Origin: Candidatus Lokiarchaeum ossiferum
GTDB taxonomy: Archaea; Asgardarchaeota; Lokiarchaeia; Sigyniarchaeales; Promethearchaeaceae
DNA: 32,000 bases
Direction of reading: 5' to 3'
NCBI GenBank assembly: GCA_025839675.1
Contig: CP104013.1
Span: 5,310,001-5,342,000, forward strand
Shown piece after piece: positions 996 to 7,708 of this stretch. Below the pieces are notes generated by a model. That model had not been told where the DNA came from. It saw only the letters and a program-made list of their open reading frames with translations, and did no database searches. How positions within the stretch are numbered: the first letter of the stretch is position 1; each line of letters opens with the position of its first letter. Made by a program: the position numbers and the translations under genes.

Positions 996-1901
996 TTAGA
1001 AATAGTTCATTAACTTCTTAATATCTTCCAAAAGATTAAACGAGTCCATTATTAGAGGTGATGCATCAAGAATTTTGGTAGAATCGTAGCCAAAAGTGAA
1101 ATAAAATGGTTCTTCTCCTATTTCAAATGCAATCATATATAATGTGATTTCTTTTACTTGAAGTGATATTTGCGACAAATTTAATTGTTTTTCTGTAAAA
1201 GTTTTAAATATTTCATGGGAAATATCTCGCATTTGTTGCTGATTAATTGCAGGATTGAAATAGTTTCCAATTTCCATCAGATTTTTTGTAAAAATCATTA
1301 TAAAATCACAACCATTTCCTTTGTTAATAAATTCCATGAATAATATTTGAAAATTATCATAAAGTGTTGTATTCTGGAAAATTGGCTTGGAAAATGCGCG
1401 TATAACATTTATTGGGTTGAAAATTGATGTCTTTGCAATTCTAATATTTAATGGTTGACTGAGTTCCAGAAATTTTTTTTGAAGGGTTTCATACATCTTG
1501 ATATGATCTTCACTGGCTTCAAAACCTGGATCAAATTTATTTATCAGCAAATTGATGGTAGCATCTGGAGAGTATTCCAAAATTGATTCTTTAATATCCC
1601 CAAAAAATGTCATTGATTCCGTCATTGCATCTTGATCTTGAAAATCAATAACAAAGAACAATTCTTCAATGCCGGAAAAATAGGTTTCTGCCTTCTTTTT
1701 ATAGGATTCGCGATATTTTTCTTGACCACCAAAATCCCAAACGACAATATCTGAATCAAGGAATTTTAGCTTGGAACGTTCAATTCCCTTGGTGGGTTTA
1801 ATGGCTTTTTCCAAGGTTTTAAATTCTCTTCGCAGAGTAAGGATTAAACTTGTTTTTCCTCCTCCCGCAATTCCTAAAATTGGTAACTTTCGAATAGGCA
1901 T
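996..1901 (-). CDS. Rag/Gtr-family small GTPase with C-terminal roadblock-like domain (paralog 2)
   Basis: 301 aa, collinear with and clearly homologous to ORF 9..923. G1 GIAGGGKTS, G3 WDFGGQ, G4 NKFD, 'ILEYSPDATI', 'KTSIFNPINVIRAFS'. Same two-domain architecture. Confidence 0.75.
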   Translation of the reverse strand: MPIRKLPILGIAGGGKTSLILTLRREFKTLEKAIKPTKGIERSKLKFLDSDIVVWDFGGQEKYRESYKKKAETYFSGIEELFFVIDFQDQDAMTESMTFFGDIKESILEYSPDATINLLINKFDPGFEASEDHIKMYETLQKKFLELSQPLNIRIAKTSIFNPINVIRAFSKPIFQNTTLYDNFQILFMEFINKGNGCDFIMIFTKNLMEIGNYFNPAINQQQMRDISHEIFKTFTEKQLNLSQISLQVKEITLYMIAFEIGEEPFYFTFGYDSTKILDASPLIMDSFNLLEDIKKLMNYF

Positions 1902-1959: not shown

Positions 1960-2376
1960 CTACTTTTGAAGAGTTGAGAAATATTCCGAAATTGTGGTAT
2001 TCCATCTTGATAAAATAGACTCAATTTTGGAAGTAAGTTCTTTTGAACTTAAAGGTGAATATATGTAGAGATAGCCTTTATTTGTTTTTGGTGATATATC
2101 TTCTCGATTATTCAAAGTACATCGTTCTTTGAATTCTGTCAAGGTCACCGATTTTCGCTCCACTAATCCCTTTTTCATTAAAACTTTAAGGTTTTTCTGG
2201 ATTATTGAACGTTCGCTATCCATAACGTCAACTAAGTTTAAGATACAAGTTCCACTATTTTCCATTTCAACGATATTCATGAAACATTCTAATTGCTTCT
2301 TGCTTAAATTAAAAACGTGGCGTATGATATTTCCAACAAGAATCGATTTATCTGGTAATATAGAAGAAACTGTCAT
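1960..2376 (-). CDS. winged-helix transcriptional regulator (TrmB/MarR-like)
   Basis: 138 aa. 'LSKKQLECFMNIVEMENSGTCILNLVDVMDSERSIIQKNLKVLMKKGLVERK' fits the TrmB/MarR wHTH pattern (helix-turn-helix followed by a ...GLVER wing). Confidence 0.55.
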   Translation of the reverse strand: MTVSSILPDKSILVGNIIRHVFNLSKKQLECFMNIVEMENSGTCILNLVDVMDSERSIIQKNLKVLMKKGLVERKSVTLTEFKERCTLNNREDISPKTNKGYLYIYSPLSSKELTSKIESILSRWNTTISEYFSTLQK

Positions 2377-2447: not shown

Positions 2448-2876
2448 TTATTTCGTGTTTTTTTTTATTACAGTGTCAATTATGCTCGCAAATTGAGCTT
2501 TTGGCGCCATTCCGACTTGTCGATGTACTAATTTCTTATTTTTGATAAATAATGTGGTTGGGATACCAGACACTTGGAACTGCTGTGCAATTTGTCCTAA
2601 ATCATCAACATTTAATTTTGCGAAGATTACACCTTTCGATTTAAATTCCTTTTGAAGTGCCTCAAAAGCTGGTGCAAATGCTTTACAAGGTCCACACCAA
2701 GCTGCCCAAAAATCTACAATTATTATATTATCAATATAATCGTTAACTATTTCATTAAAATGGTCAACTGAACTTATATTGACCACGCTATCAGGGAGTT
2801 GTTTTGTTGTCATCATTTCTATCATCTTTTTTCGTCGTATTAATTCTAACTCTTTGTCTTGTGACATTTTTTTCAC
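2448..2876 (-). CDS. trxA: thioredoxin
   Basis: 142 aa. Canonical active site 'WAAWCGPCK' and the downstream 'GIPT' cis-Pro loop. Has an N-terminal charged extension. Confidence 0.9.
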   Translation of the reverse strand: MKKMSQDKELELIRRKKMIEMMTTKQLPDSVVNISSVDHFNEIVNDYIDNIIIVDFWAAWCGPCKAFAPAFEALQKEFKSKGVIFAKLNVDDLGQIAQQFQVSGIPTTLFIKNKKLVHRQVGMAPKAQFASIIDTVIKKNTK

Positions 2877-3127
2877 GTAAGTATTATCGAATGGTTGTGC
2901 ATTTTTTTTTCCATTCTATATTAGTATAAACGATCCATATATTTAAAGGTTGTGCAAAAAAAAAACCTTACTTTCATATTTATTTCTATTTTGCCTAGAA
3001 TGGAGATTGTTTACATTGGAATCTTTTGACCCTTTTTTTCCGAATATTTCGAATGGAACAACTTAAATTAGTCAAATATTTAGATCAAATAGATCTATAT
3101 GGAATTTACCGACACAGGTAATTAACC

Positions 3128-3427
3128 ATGGAAATAACAGAAGAAGCATGTGAATTTGTTTCTGAGCAATCAAGCATAATGCAAGATCCGGTAATAGTCG
3201 TGTTTGAACGAACTTATCGAGGTTGATGCGGTGAAACAAAAGTAATTAATGTGGCTCCTGCTGATCGAGAAAAAGTGATAAGCCCAGAAAACTATATTGA
3301 GAAGAGTATCCCAGAGTGTAAATTTCCTATATTCTTTGAATCGAATTTGCACCATTTATATGATTCTGCCAAAATTGATGTTGTTGGATGGTCTGCTTTT
3401 AGAAGATTGGCATTGACCCAAAATTGA
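3128..3427 (+). CDS. HesB/IscA-like small protein with in-frame UGA (candidate selenocysteine at codon 33)
   Basis: Not in the ORF track. ATG 3128, in-frame TGA at 3224..3226, then 66 further open codons to TGA 3425..3427. Translation: MEITEEACEFVSEQSSIMQDPVIVVFERTYRG-U-CGETKVINVAPADREKVISPENYIEKSIPECKFPIFFESNLHHLYDSAKIDVVGWSAFRRLALTQN. This is collinear with IscA ('ITLSDSAAARV', '[20 protein letters not shown]', '[21 protein letters not shown]'), with U at the IscA 'GCSG' Cys. AGGT lies ~10 nt upstream of the ATG. Confidence 0.6.
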
Positions 3428-3435
3428 ACATCAAA

Positions 3436-3505
3436 TTCTTCAGAATGAAGTGTATCCATAAACTCTTGGGGATACATGGACACCTATTAGCGAATAGGGG
3501 AAGAA
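3436..3505 (+). promoter_or_regulatory. candidate SECIS element in the 3' UTR of the UGA-containing ORF
   Basis: TGTATCC (3451-3457) pairs with GGATACA (3470-3476), plus G3450-U3477. The 12-nt apical loop ATAAACTCTTGG carries AAA at 3460-3462. AUGA (3445-3448) lies opposite GGA (3478-3480), allowing tandem sheared G3447.A3480 / A3448.G3479. An outer TTCTTC (3436-3441) / GAAGAA (3500-3505) helix encloses it and a second hairpin, CCTATT-AGCG-AATAGG (3483-3498). Confidence 0.45.
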
Positions 3506-3517
3506 AATGGATCAATA

Positions 3518-3525
3518 TTTTTTTT
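3518..3525 (+). terminator. oligo-T tract (T8), likely archaeal terminator after the SECIS-like structure
   Basis: T8 run about 90 nt after the stop codon at 3427 and just past the folded region. Archaeal termination commonly uses oligo-T tracts. Confidence 0.35.
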
Positions 3526-3626
3526 CTAGATATCTTACCAATCTTTCTCATTCCACAGCATTTTTTAATAATTGGTGAAATCTATAAGATATGTCTCCCA
3601 ATTTTAAATTTGTTTTTAAAAATCGA

Positions 3627-4055
3627 CTATTTTAACCCTTTTCGTGCTTTTCTTTGAATTATTTTAATTAATCTTTTTGAGATGGGATCTTTAGCTACAA
3701 TATCAGCAAAATCTAAGGGATTGAAAAAGATCTTAAGAATTTTCAATTTGTTTTCTTCAAAAATAAGTGTCTCTGCTTGATGGGATCTAATTATCTGGCC
3801 ATTTTTCAATTTTACTATGGCGTAGAATTCCTCATAGAACACATTACCTTCGGAAATAATTACTACAGGTTCGAAATCAAGTTGTGGTGTCTTTTCAAAT
3901 AACCATTTGAGCCATTGTTGTGCACCCTCTTTTCCTTTCAATGGAACATTGAGGGTGGTTATTTCACAATTTTCATGGAAAAATTTTAATATACTCGGAA
4001 TATTGCGTTCAGTTAAAGCTTTATCGAAATTTTCTGCAATTGTTTTGATATCCAC
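3627..4055 (-). CDS. NTF2-like / SnoaL-like fold protein (tentative)
   Basis: 142 aa. Size and alpha+beta cone pattern ('...ALTERNIPSILKFFHENCEI...', then beta-rich 'GNVFYEEFYAIVKLKNGQIIRSHQAETLIFEENKL') resemble SnoaL/NTF2-like proteins. No catalytic motif recognised. Confidence 0.35.
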   Translation of the reverse strand: MDIKTIAENFDKALTERNIPSILKFFHENCEITTLNVPLKGKEGAQQWLKWLFEKTPQLDFEPVVIISEGNVFYEEFYAIVKLKNGQIIRSHQAETLIFEENKLKILKIFFNPLDFADIVAKDPISKRLIKIIQRKARKGLK

Positions 4056-6724: not shown

Positions 6725-7183
6725 TTGAATTTTTTTGTGTCGTCAAGTGATCCTCAATTTTCGGATTTTACCTTTACTGAATTACTTAATTTTGTTTCCA
6801 CCATTAGCCGCACTAAAAAACAATCTTCCCTCGGGGTGTGGAAGGATGGGCATGGTTTAGAATCAATGGACCATTTGGAAGCTAATGTGGATCAAATTCT
6901 TGAAGAATTGACAACCCGTGTCAAAAAAGTTTGGTCCTTAGAGCGAATTCAATCTAATTTTGCCAGAGCGGGTTTAAATTTACCCAATGAAATTCTTAAC
7001 ATCTTTAATATAACATCTTCTGAGTTGAATCGATTATTATACAAGTTTCCTCCTGCAATTGGGGCTGAGAACGTCAATGGTGTAGATGAAATCTGGCTGG
7101 TTATTAATAACATGAAATATTTGATGAAATCTGATGGTAAAATTTTTGTTTCAGAAATGCCCCGCAAAGAATTTTTTTCATAA
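6725..7183 (+). CDS. hypothetical protein, paralog A of a tandem pair
   Basis: 152 aa with a TTG start in the track. Shares 'ISRTK.QS..GVWKDGHGL.S.DHLEA.VD.IL.EL' and 'RIQ.NF....LNLP.E.LN....T...LN...YK' with ORF 7274..7708. No known family recognised. Confidence 0.6.
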   Translation: MNFFVSSSDPQFSDFTFTELLNFVSTISRTKKQSSLGVWKDGHGLESMDHLEANVDQILEELTTRVKKVWSLERIQSNFARAGLNLPNEILNIFNITSSELNRLLYKFPPAIGAENVNGVDEIWLVINNMKYLMKSDGKIFVSEMPRKEFFS

Positions 7184-7273: not shown

Positions 7274-7708
7274 ATGTATTTTGACGATGAGGATAATCCA
7301 TTCAAGAAATTTCAATTTGAAGAACTTGTAGAAATGGTTCGCACAATTTCGAGAACTAAAACTCAATCTCGCGAAGGAGTGTGGAAAGATGGGCACGGTC
7401 TTCAATCCATTGATCATTTAGAAGCTCATGTGGATGATATCCTTGATGAACTCGCCCGAAGAATTCGAGCAAATTTTACCATAGATCGGATCCAACGAAA
7501 TTTTCGTTATAATAAACTTAATCTACCCACAGAATTTCTAAATCTCTACAATTTAACTGCTGCCCAATTGAATTTCATGATATATAAAGATAAAAATTCT
7601 ATAGGGGCAATTTTAACAGATGGTAAGGAAGAAATTTTTATTAAACATGGGCCTGTGCGTTATGTCATGAATACTGAAGGAAATATCGCCGTGATAAAAG
7701 AAAATTAA
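7274..7708 (+). CDS. hypothetical protein, paralog B of a tandem pair
   Basis: 144 aa with an ATG start. Collinear homology to ORF 6725..7183 over its full length. Confidence 0.65.
   Translation: MYFDDEDNPFKKFQFEELVEMVRTISRTKTQSREGVWKDGHGLQSIDHLEAHVDDILDELARRIRANFTIDRIQRNFRYNKLNLPTEFLNLYNLTAAQLNFMIYKDKNSIGAILTDGKEEIFIKHGPVRYVMNTEGNIAVIKEN

Follow-up and report, generated by a model that had tools for sequence, protein, structure and literature searches.

When a short archaeal reading frame is interrupted by a single UGA codon, is that codon a stop or a signal for selenocysteine (Sec, U), and if Sec is inserted, to which protein family does the product belong? The locus that raises these questions lies at positions 3128..3427 on the plus strand of a 32,000-nucleotide stretch of Candidatus Lokiarchaeum ossiferum DNA (contig CP104013.1, positions 5,310,001 to 5,342,000), hereafter called the window. 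As an earlier note on this DNA had claimed, direct translation gave a 99-codon frame, from the ATG at 3128-3130 to the terminal TGA at 3425-3427, in which codon 33 (TGA, 3224..3226) is the sole in-frame stop before the terminus. The translation runs MEITEEACEFVSEQSSIMQDPVIVVFERTYRG, TGA, CGETKV...RRLALTQN, stop. With Sec33, the product would contain 98 standard residues plus one Sec. The local motif is R-G-[TGA]-C-G, and its Cys34-Gly35 portion (3227..3232) is invariant in the family, forming a [G/S]-U/C-C-G motif together with residue 33. The evidence presented below indicates that this is very probably a selenoprotein gene with a functional selenocysteine insertion sequence (SECIS), and makes it nearly as probable that gene, recoding, family, and fold are all as we read them, namely a 99-residue selenoprotein of the CC/Se family with an IscA fold.

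Gene callers break this coding sequence into a 32-residue open reading frame (ORF; 3128-3226) and a 58-residue ORF that begins with GTG (3251-3427). For this locus, the mechanical ORF list of the window contained only the 58-residue C-terminal piece (3251..3427, plus strand) and, on the opposite strand, the ORFs 3170..3355 and 3292..3483 that the earlier note had also reported. The public L. ossiferum record CP163304.1, which matched the window without gaps at 99.1% identity over 6,177 bases, has the 32-residue ORF, the 58-residue ORF as a 'hypothetical protein', and an antisense ORF of 61 residues at the same place. The copies of the gene in the window and in CP163304.1 differ by a single conservative change (I17V) and have identical 3' untranslated regions (UTRs). 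We estimate that a 99-codon frame with one stop has a chance of ~0.4% per start position at 32.5% GC content, and there are many such positions. The frame alone is therefore not beyond chance, and the case for a gene rests on comparison with other genomes.

For this comparison, an exhaustive HMMER search with an orthologue (P0001) as query returned 15 cluster representatives, and scans of genome and metagenome collections identified 12 loci (database proteins and loci carry P and L numbers, respectively). The scanned loci included one from Promethearchaeum syntrophicum MK-D1 (L004), and each Promethearchaeum metagenome-assembled genome had two paralogous copies. A word-indexed protein search found two relatives only, a profile search added no further named homologues, and no homologue named as a selenoprotein was found in the database sources.

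First, the UGA codon was conserved. Besides the window, 17 TGA-type loci, including that of MK-D1, had TGA-TGY-GGN at the homologous codon, at identities down to ~31%. In every full-length database entry, column 33 was 'W' or 'C'. DNA beneath the 'W' entries that were fetched (P0001, P0007, P0010, P0013) had TGA here, with codons for Cys and Gly next, and a true Cys codon giving C-C-G was present in P0005/L014, P0008/L015, and P0016/L016. Thus, Cys or Sec aligned with codon 33, the comparison that the earlier note had suggested as a check. Invariant columns among 13 aligned sequences were A7, C34, G35, I83, G87, and L94. Decoding of the UGA as Trp or Cys, by a reassigned code or near-cognate read-through, could explain why W occupies this position in P0001, P0003, P0004, and other entries, but is extremely improbable in light of several results: the codon beneath the fetched W residues is TGA, the alternative residue in homologues is Cys and never a Trp encoded by TGG, TGA serves as an ordinary stop in the window (ending 4 of 28 large ORFs as well as this gene itself), and a covarying SECIS comes after the gene in every TGA form but not in the distant Cys forms.

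Separately, we note that the Sec codon is translated as W in public entries P0001, P0003, P0004, P0006, P0007, P0010, P0012, P0013, and P0015, a result of genes on short contigs being called with genetic code 4 or 25; other public entries of the family are C-terminal fragments of 54-61 residues. The mistranslation creates a false W-C-G, which in turn gives spurious matches to thioredoxins (WCGPC), and weak thioredoxin matches to PDB chains and to TIGR01068 were rejected as artefacts of this kind.

Second, both halves of the frame behaved as coding sequence. Relative to L001 (84% identical), changes at codon positions 1/2/3 numbered 3/2/14 before the TGA and 9/5/30 after it, and the ratios of synonymous to non-synonymous codon changes were 11:5 and 24:11, respectively. 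These patterns point to purifying selection on both halves of the gene. In 14 of 14 loci tested, the plus-strand frame contained exactly one internal stop, and the remaining five frames contained 1-13 stops. An alternative in which no intact gene exists, the locus being a nonsense-broken pseudogene or a pair of small ORFs and the true genes being those of the minus strand (3170..3355 and 3292..3483), agrees with the automatic calls of 32-, 58-, and antisense 61-residue ORFs. We regard it as the least probable of all the explanations considered, because deeply diverged loci keep the stop at a single codon and the sequence to either side of it is under purifying selection, the predicted single-domain fold requires both halves, contiguous Cys forms exist, and the minus-strand frames of the orthologues contain 1-11 stops. 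Conserved homologues of the minus-strand ORFs, which the earlier note had named as a potential refutation, were not found in the orthologues, where the antisense translations diverge heavily.

Third, a candidate SECIS core of the Lokiarchaeal, eukaryote-like type is located at 3445..3480 on the plus strand, 17 nucleotides past the terminal stop and 221 nucleotides downstream of the Sec codon. Its parts are AUGA (3445-3448), a spacer (A3449), a stem (3450-3457 paired with 3470-3477), a 12-nucleotide apical loop with the sequence AUAAACUCUUGG (3458-3469), a second spacer (G3478), and GA (3479-3480). The published lokiSECIS consists of AUGA, a 9-bp stem, an 11-nucleotide loop with an A-rich start and an (A)G end, and GA (Mariotti 2016, PMC4989117; Huang 2024, PMC11227280). 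The window element shares the AUGA, the stem of ~9 bp, the A-rich start and terminal G of the loop, the GA, and the location just after the stop. Its stem comprises eight Watson-Crick or GU pairs plus a basal A.G pair, and its loop is a one-base variant, 12 rather than 11 nucleotides, as in the SECIS of L. ossiferum SelD. With its possible UAA/UUG ministem, this loop resembles the eSECIS-like type II form (Huang 2024, PMC11227280) of the same organism's SelD. The element also differs from published lokiSECIS elements in serving a family not linked to them before, in a possible lower helix and second hairpin (see below), and in the UUGA of two related loci.

The same architecture recurred in all TGA-type loci, directly after the stop: AUGA, one base, a 7-9 bp stem, a 10-14 nucleotide loop, the complementary arm, one base, and GA. 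Exact 9-bp stems with 11-nucleotide loops were present in L007, L012, L017, and L019. The loop started with [A/G]UAAAC or AAAAAC and usually ended with G; the AAAC of the loop and the GA after the stem were invariant in the SECIS alignments, and AUGA was present in all loci except L013 and L014, which have UUGA. In a 12-sequence alignment, seven of eight stem pairs changed on both sides and 89.5% of the cells were paired. None of 500 shuffles reached any of four measures, and slid registers paired at only 15-56%. A structural descriptor written from the published lokiSECIS definition matched once in the window, where 0.11 matches are expected per 32 kb on both strands, and every related locus had a single match, located on the coding strand just past the stop. 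By the same descriptor, no match was found in the distant Cys forms L015 and L016, whose 3' ends are plain and terminator-like. Searches of Rfam, in which lokiSECIS is not modelled, gave no SECIS or other family at the gathering threshold across the window or at E<=10 for 3400-3640. Together, the conserved TGA, the two-sided coding selection, and the SECIS bear out the proposal that a selenoprotein gene is missing from the annotation.

The SECIS may extend beyond its core. A possible lower helix (3436..3505) pairs UUCUUC (3436-3441) with GAAGAA (3500-3505), and equivalent positions could pair through different sequences in most loci, including CCAAUCGU/ACGAUUGG in L002, AAAUCUCA/UGAGAUUU in L005, and UUAAUUCCCUU/AAGGGAAUUAA in L012. 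Shuffling tests favoured this helix in L012 and L013 alone, most single sequences giving no significant result, and the extended structure is no more than suggestive. A second small hairpin, CCUAUU (3483-3488) with AAUAGG (3493-3498), would lie within it, and a lower helix that encloses the kink-turn hairpin and a second hairpin may constitute a three-way junction. Beyond the SECIS, a run of eight T residues (3518..3525) is a likely archaeal transcription terminator, and T-runs follow the SECIS in other loci too.

Two further observations concern this region. The TGA locus L013 and its close relative L014, which has a Cys codon (P0005), have near-identical 3' UTRs (L013, 1070-1104; L014, after 422), both with UUGA. 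The pair suggests that Sec and Cys were exchanged very recently and that the SECIS outlasted the change, possibly as a weakened element that is being lost. In the window, the next in-frame stop past the terminal UGA is the UGA within the AUGA (3446-3448), and recoding of the terminal codon would add only U-TSNSSE.

Is Sec decoded in the organisms that carry the gene? In L. ossiferum, SelD (P0044) itself contains Sec, as the frame upstream of its annotated start reads ...CSMHG-TGA-KCK... and its 3' UTR contains AUGA / GGAGAAACA / AUAAACCUUUGG / UGUUUCUUU / GA. The SelD loop, AUAAACCUUUGG, differs from the window loop at two positions. For MK-D1, Sec use has been published: SelD, FrhA, FrhD, HdrA, and three PrxL proteins contain Sec (Huang 2024, PMC11227280). 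Thus, the Sec trait is present in organisms carrying the gene, in accord with the Lokiarchaeal Sec decoding to which the earlier note had appealed. ARAGORN found no tRNA within the window. The annotation of L. ossiferum SelD (312 residues; L021, 5900-6000) begins after the Sec codon, its true start being ~38 codons upstream (MSSYNEIIKNYKLTEKCSMHG-U-KCK...), and this selenoprotein is therefore also truncated in the public record.

The earlier note had proposed a place for the protein among the HesB-like selenoproteins (TIGR01911; motif UxGP), a family of Methanococcales and many anaerobic bacteria. Our comparisons favoured a different assignment. The hidden Markov model NF041239 ('CC/Se motif family (seleno)protein') matched 13 of 13 members tested, with a best E value of 3.8e-9 and scores below the cutoff; for the window protein, residues 2-95 aligned to positions 4-87 of the 91-position profile (E 1.5e-5, 25 bits). 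The related Pfam family PF28096 (CC_Se_fam) is recorded in precomputed Pfam results for the distant members P0010, P0012, and P0015, and a local Pfam copy gave no match for the window protein. NF041239 ('Moor_selen_rel') and PF28096 trace back to a hypothetical Moorella thermoacetica selenoprotein, a protein not described in the main text of Peng 2016. NF041239 was the only model matched, along the full length, by all 13 members, and both sets are small proteins of ~90-100 residues with a CC or Sec motif. By sequence, then, the protein probably belongs to the CC/Se motif family (NF041239/PF28096) as part of a divergent archaeal clade. This clade has a lokiSECIS in the 3' UTR, in contrast to the in-frame SECIS of bacteria.

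Membership in TIGR01911 would be attractive for several reasons. HesB-like selenoproteins, too, are small proteins whose single domain has a fold of the HesB/IscA class, and their one Sec occupies the analogous hairpin-tip Cys position; moreover, two distant members of the present family, P0012 and P0013, read U-C-G-P, which fits UxGP. We nevertheless consider it very improbable. TIGR01911 matched none of the 13 members at E<=10, including in the comparison of the read-through protein with HesB-like selenoproteins that the earlier note had recommended; the Pfam family Fe-S_biosyn matched only one of 13; the motif in the window is U-C-G-E, with U-C-G-P confined to those two distant members; an invariant Cys directly follows Sec in the present family; and the SECIS in the window is unlike that of Methanococcales (GAA_A type).

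At the level of fold, the resemblance to HesB/IscA seen by the earlier note was upheld. An AlphaFold2 model built from a 12-sequence alignment (mean predicted local distance difference test score, 93; predicted template-modelling score, 0.83) showed a single domain spanning both halves of the protein, with helices (H) and strands (E) ordered H5-17, E21-32, E35-46, E56-59, E68-71, H72-77, E81-86, and E93-98. When this model was compared to the PDB with Foldseek, the top eight matches were all members of the IscA/SufA family, comprising IscA (1r94, 1x0g, 1s98), SufA (2d2a), HI1723 (2apn), and AQ_1857 (1nwb), all over the full length with probabilities of 0.99-1.00 and template-modelling scores of 0.50-0.61; the ninth match, 9a4q (probability 0.85), stood alone between these and noise. 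The protein is therefore predicted to have the fold of the A-type Fe-S carriers (IscA/HesB). In the model, Sec33-Cys34 form the tip of the first β-hairpin, whose counterpart in IscA is SG-C35-SG (sequence verified against 1s98). A sequence search against PDB chains found nothing significant, and Fe-S_biosyn (PF01521) matched P0004 at E 0.032 (residues 4-91 to profile positions 2-87 of 110), below the gathering score, with Sec37 of P0004 falling near the profile position of IscA Cys35. In a non-significant hhalign alignment, residues 59-86 paired with IscA 53-80, the same C-terminal block that the earlier note had matched to IscA.

Despite the common fold, order of secondary structure, and placement of the reactive residue at the first hairpin tip, the protein differs from the IscA/SufA/ErpA group (PF01521; 1r94, 1s98, 1x0g, 2d2a) in several respects. 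Identity is ~10%, a Sec-Cys dyad replaces the single Cys, and the neighbouring gene encodes a thioredoxin rather than an isc or suf product. Moreover, members of the family lack the C-terminal Cys-x-Cys (CGC) ligands of IscA and end in ...GWSxFRRLxL, leaving the adjacent Sec33-Cys34 as the only conserved reactive residues. The earlier note had placed Sec at the cluster-ligand Cys of IscA: the hairpin-tip location equivalent to Cys35 stands, and the missing CGC ligands reduce the term 'cluster ligand' to a structural analogy.

What might the dyad do? The divergently transcribed neighbour of the gene (2448..2876, minus strand) encodes a thioredoxin with a WCGPC motif (Pfam Thioredoxin, E 3.5e-26), a candidate redox partner. 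A thioredoxin gene adjoins the Sec gene in six loci and in two arrangements, divergent in the window, L007, L008, and L013, and downstream on the same strand in L019 and L020, which encode deeply divergent family members. From established archaeal and eukaryotic decoding, the SECIS would recruit a Sec-specific elongation factor and Sec-tRNA(Sec), allowing UGA-33 to be read as Sec; the terminal UGA would escape recoding, being too close to the SECIS at only 17 nucleotides. The vicinal Sec-Cys pair could then cycle between selenol/thiol and selenenylsulfide states, with the neighbouring thioredoxin re-reducing the selenenylsulfide. Because Sec-Cys are the only conserved reactive residues and thioredoxin is the recurring neighbour, we favour this thioredoxin-recycled redox centre over a metal or Fe-S role, although we hold it tentatively and with slightly less than even confidence. 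Mammalian thioredoxin reductase has a C-terminal Gly-Cys-Sec-Gly redox centre that forms a selenenylsulfide and works with thioredoxin. By analogy, the vicinal Cys/Sec flanked by Gly in the Lokiarchaeal protein may act in a similar way, but the order is reversed (G-U-C-G) and the dyad would sit in an ordered hairpin within a small protein of different fold rather than on a flexible C-terminal tail.

A metal-binding role for the same recoded gene, in which U33 and C34 of two protomers would bind a cluster or soft metal (Fe-S, Cu, Hg, As) at a dimer interface, is unlikely in our estimation yet far from negligible. The IscA/SufA fold, with the dyad on the hairpin tip that bears the IscA ligand Cys, would suit this role; adjacent CU or UC pairs are found in metal-binding selenoproteins (GxUC and CU in the CopZ family and CU in MerB-like SaoL; table in the 2026 review); and the gene next to the Sec gene in L002-L006 encodes a QueC/ThiI-type PP-loop ATPase, and such enzymes commonly rely on Fe-S or a sulfur relay. 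Against this role, the C-terminal CGC ligands of IscA are missing from the family, and its recurring neighbour is thioredoxin and not an Fe-S assembly gene.

Several results weigh against parts of the reading of this gene as a thioredoxin-linked CC/Se selenoprotein. With respect to recoding, Sec insertion at codon 33 is deduced from sequence, and SelD alone provides the evidence for Sec machinery from L. ossiferum itself. A covariance model built from the family SECIS cores recovered the family, yet it gave 9.9 bits for held-out L002/L009 and failed to recognise the SelD SECIS (8.6 bits); these low scores indicate that the model over-fits the stem sequence, and the structural descriptor was used in its place. 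With respect to family, the NF041239 score of the window protein (25 bits) is below the curated cutoff (40 bits), and the NF041239 motif is given as CxxU in the 2026 review, compared to U-C in the Lokiarchaeal clade, the Sec columns here being compared by description. With respect to fold, hhalign comparisons with IscA and with an IscA/SufA/ErpA profile were not significant (E 0.07 and 0.27; of the sequences used, that of IscA was checked against 1s98). Finally, the redox function is a matter of inference only, and a second Promethearchaeum subfamily (L002-L006) has a PP-loop ATPase instead of a thioredoxin as neighbour.

The wider neighbourhood offers additional candidates for association with the gene. 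The window contains, in order, two GTPases, a TrmB-like winged helix-turn-helix protein, the thioredoxin, the Sec gene, a SnoaL-like protein (in the window only), a tetratricopeptide-repeat protein, and an APH-family kinase. This order is common to Promethearchaeum L007 and L008, and to L013 as far as its shorter contig reaches. The TrmB-like protein (1960..2376, minus strand; Pfam TrmB, E 2.7e-4) is a candidate regulator of the thioredoxin-Sec gene pair, and a homologue lies beside the Sec gene in L007, in L008, and in the distant L017 (33% identity, E 6e-17). The GTPases (9-923 and 996-1901, minus strand) are tandem paralogues of ~300 residues, Gtr1/RagA-like eukaryote-signature proteins that are also close by in L008.

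Upstream of the Sec gene, AGGT (3116..3119), 8 nucleotides before the ATG and kept in L001, is a putative ribosome-binding motif. A block with TTAAAT (3052-3075), near-identical in L001 within diverged flanks, is a candidate promoter, and a perfect palindrome, AGATCAAATAGATCT (3082-3096), common to the window and L001, is a candidate operator. Within the thioredoxin-Sec gene intergenic region (2877-3127), GGTTGTGCA occurs twice (2893-2901 and 2949-2957), and TATTTAAAGGTTG (2941-2953) is also present upstream of the gene in L007 and L008. The repeats, shared block, and palindrome are perhaps promoter or operator elements, possibly for the adjacent TrmB-like protein. A scan for bacterial sigma-70 promoters and terminators was uninformative, as the host is an archaeon.

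In the second Promethearchaeum subfamily, the PP-loop ATPase gene always follows the Sec gene in convergent orientation (in L004, 4398-5267, minus strand), and its product shows weak QueC/ThiI/tRNA-thiolase-like matches; a solute-binding protein gene (SBP_bac_3) precedes the Sec gene in L003-L005. Similarity in sequence and in the SECIS loop links the window gene to this subfamily, and synteny links it to the other. Elsewhere in the window, tandem paralogues of ~150 residues (6725-7183 and 7274-7708, both plus strand) share the motif SRTK.QS..GVWKDGHGL.S.DHLEA and have a homologue in L008; the 6725-7183 protein had no match in Pfam.

How does the gene relate to known selenoproteins? Published Asgard selenoproteomes (2016, 2024, 2026) comprise seven families, and this family is not among them. 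A study of more than 400 Asgard genomes added an AhpF-N homologue and a DsbA-like protein (Huang 2024, PMC11227280), the 2024 Atabeya/Freyarchaeia study listed HdrA, Prx-like, SPS, and VhuU, and the 2026 review repeats the Asgard families and describes NF041239 with bacterial references only. In the literature searched, NF041239 was mentioned only by that review. The suggestion of the earlier note that the gene may extend the Asgard selenoproteome agrees with the Asgard lists of all three years. The recoding is of a known general kind, UGA decoding directed by lokiSECIS in Asgard archaea, and the protein family is new to reports of archaeal selenoproteins. The 2016 and 2024 surveys probably missed it because the gene is short and is split or mistranslated (as W) by gene callers, and because searches were queried with known archaeal families. 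A more ambitious proposal, which we advance as speculation and judge unlikely to hold in full, is that the Asgard CC/Se clade constitutes an undescribed selenoenzyme module, in which an IscA scaffold, its cluster ligands lost, has acquired a vicinal Sec-Cys selenenylsulfide centre that is served by a dedicated thioredoxin and controlled by a TrmB-like regulator; this would be an eighth Asgard family, ancestral to Lokiarchaeales, with a SECIS that is possibly a three-way-junction lokiSECIS.

The public annotations of L. ossiferum and MK-D1 need correction at this locus. Both Asgard organisms in culture, L. ossiferum and P. syntrophicum MK-D1, carry the gene, which puts lokiSECIS-directed Sec insertion within reach of proteomics. 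For the uncharacterised bacterial CC/Se family, the links to the IscA fold and to thioredoxin provide a first structural and functional hypothesis. For the Asgard archaea, which are the reference point for the origin of the eukaryotic selenocysteine system, the gene adds a family that earlier surveys had missed.

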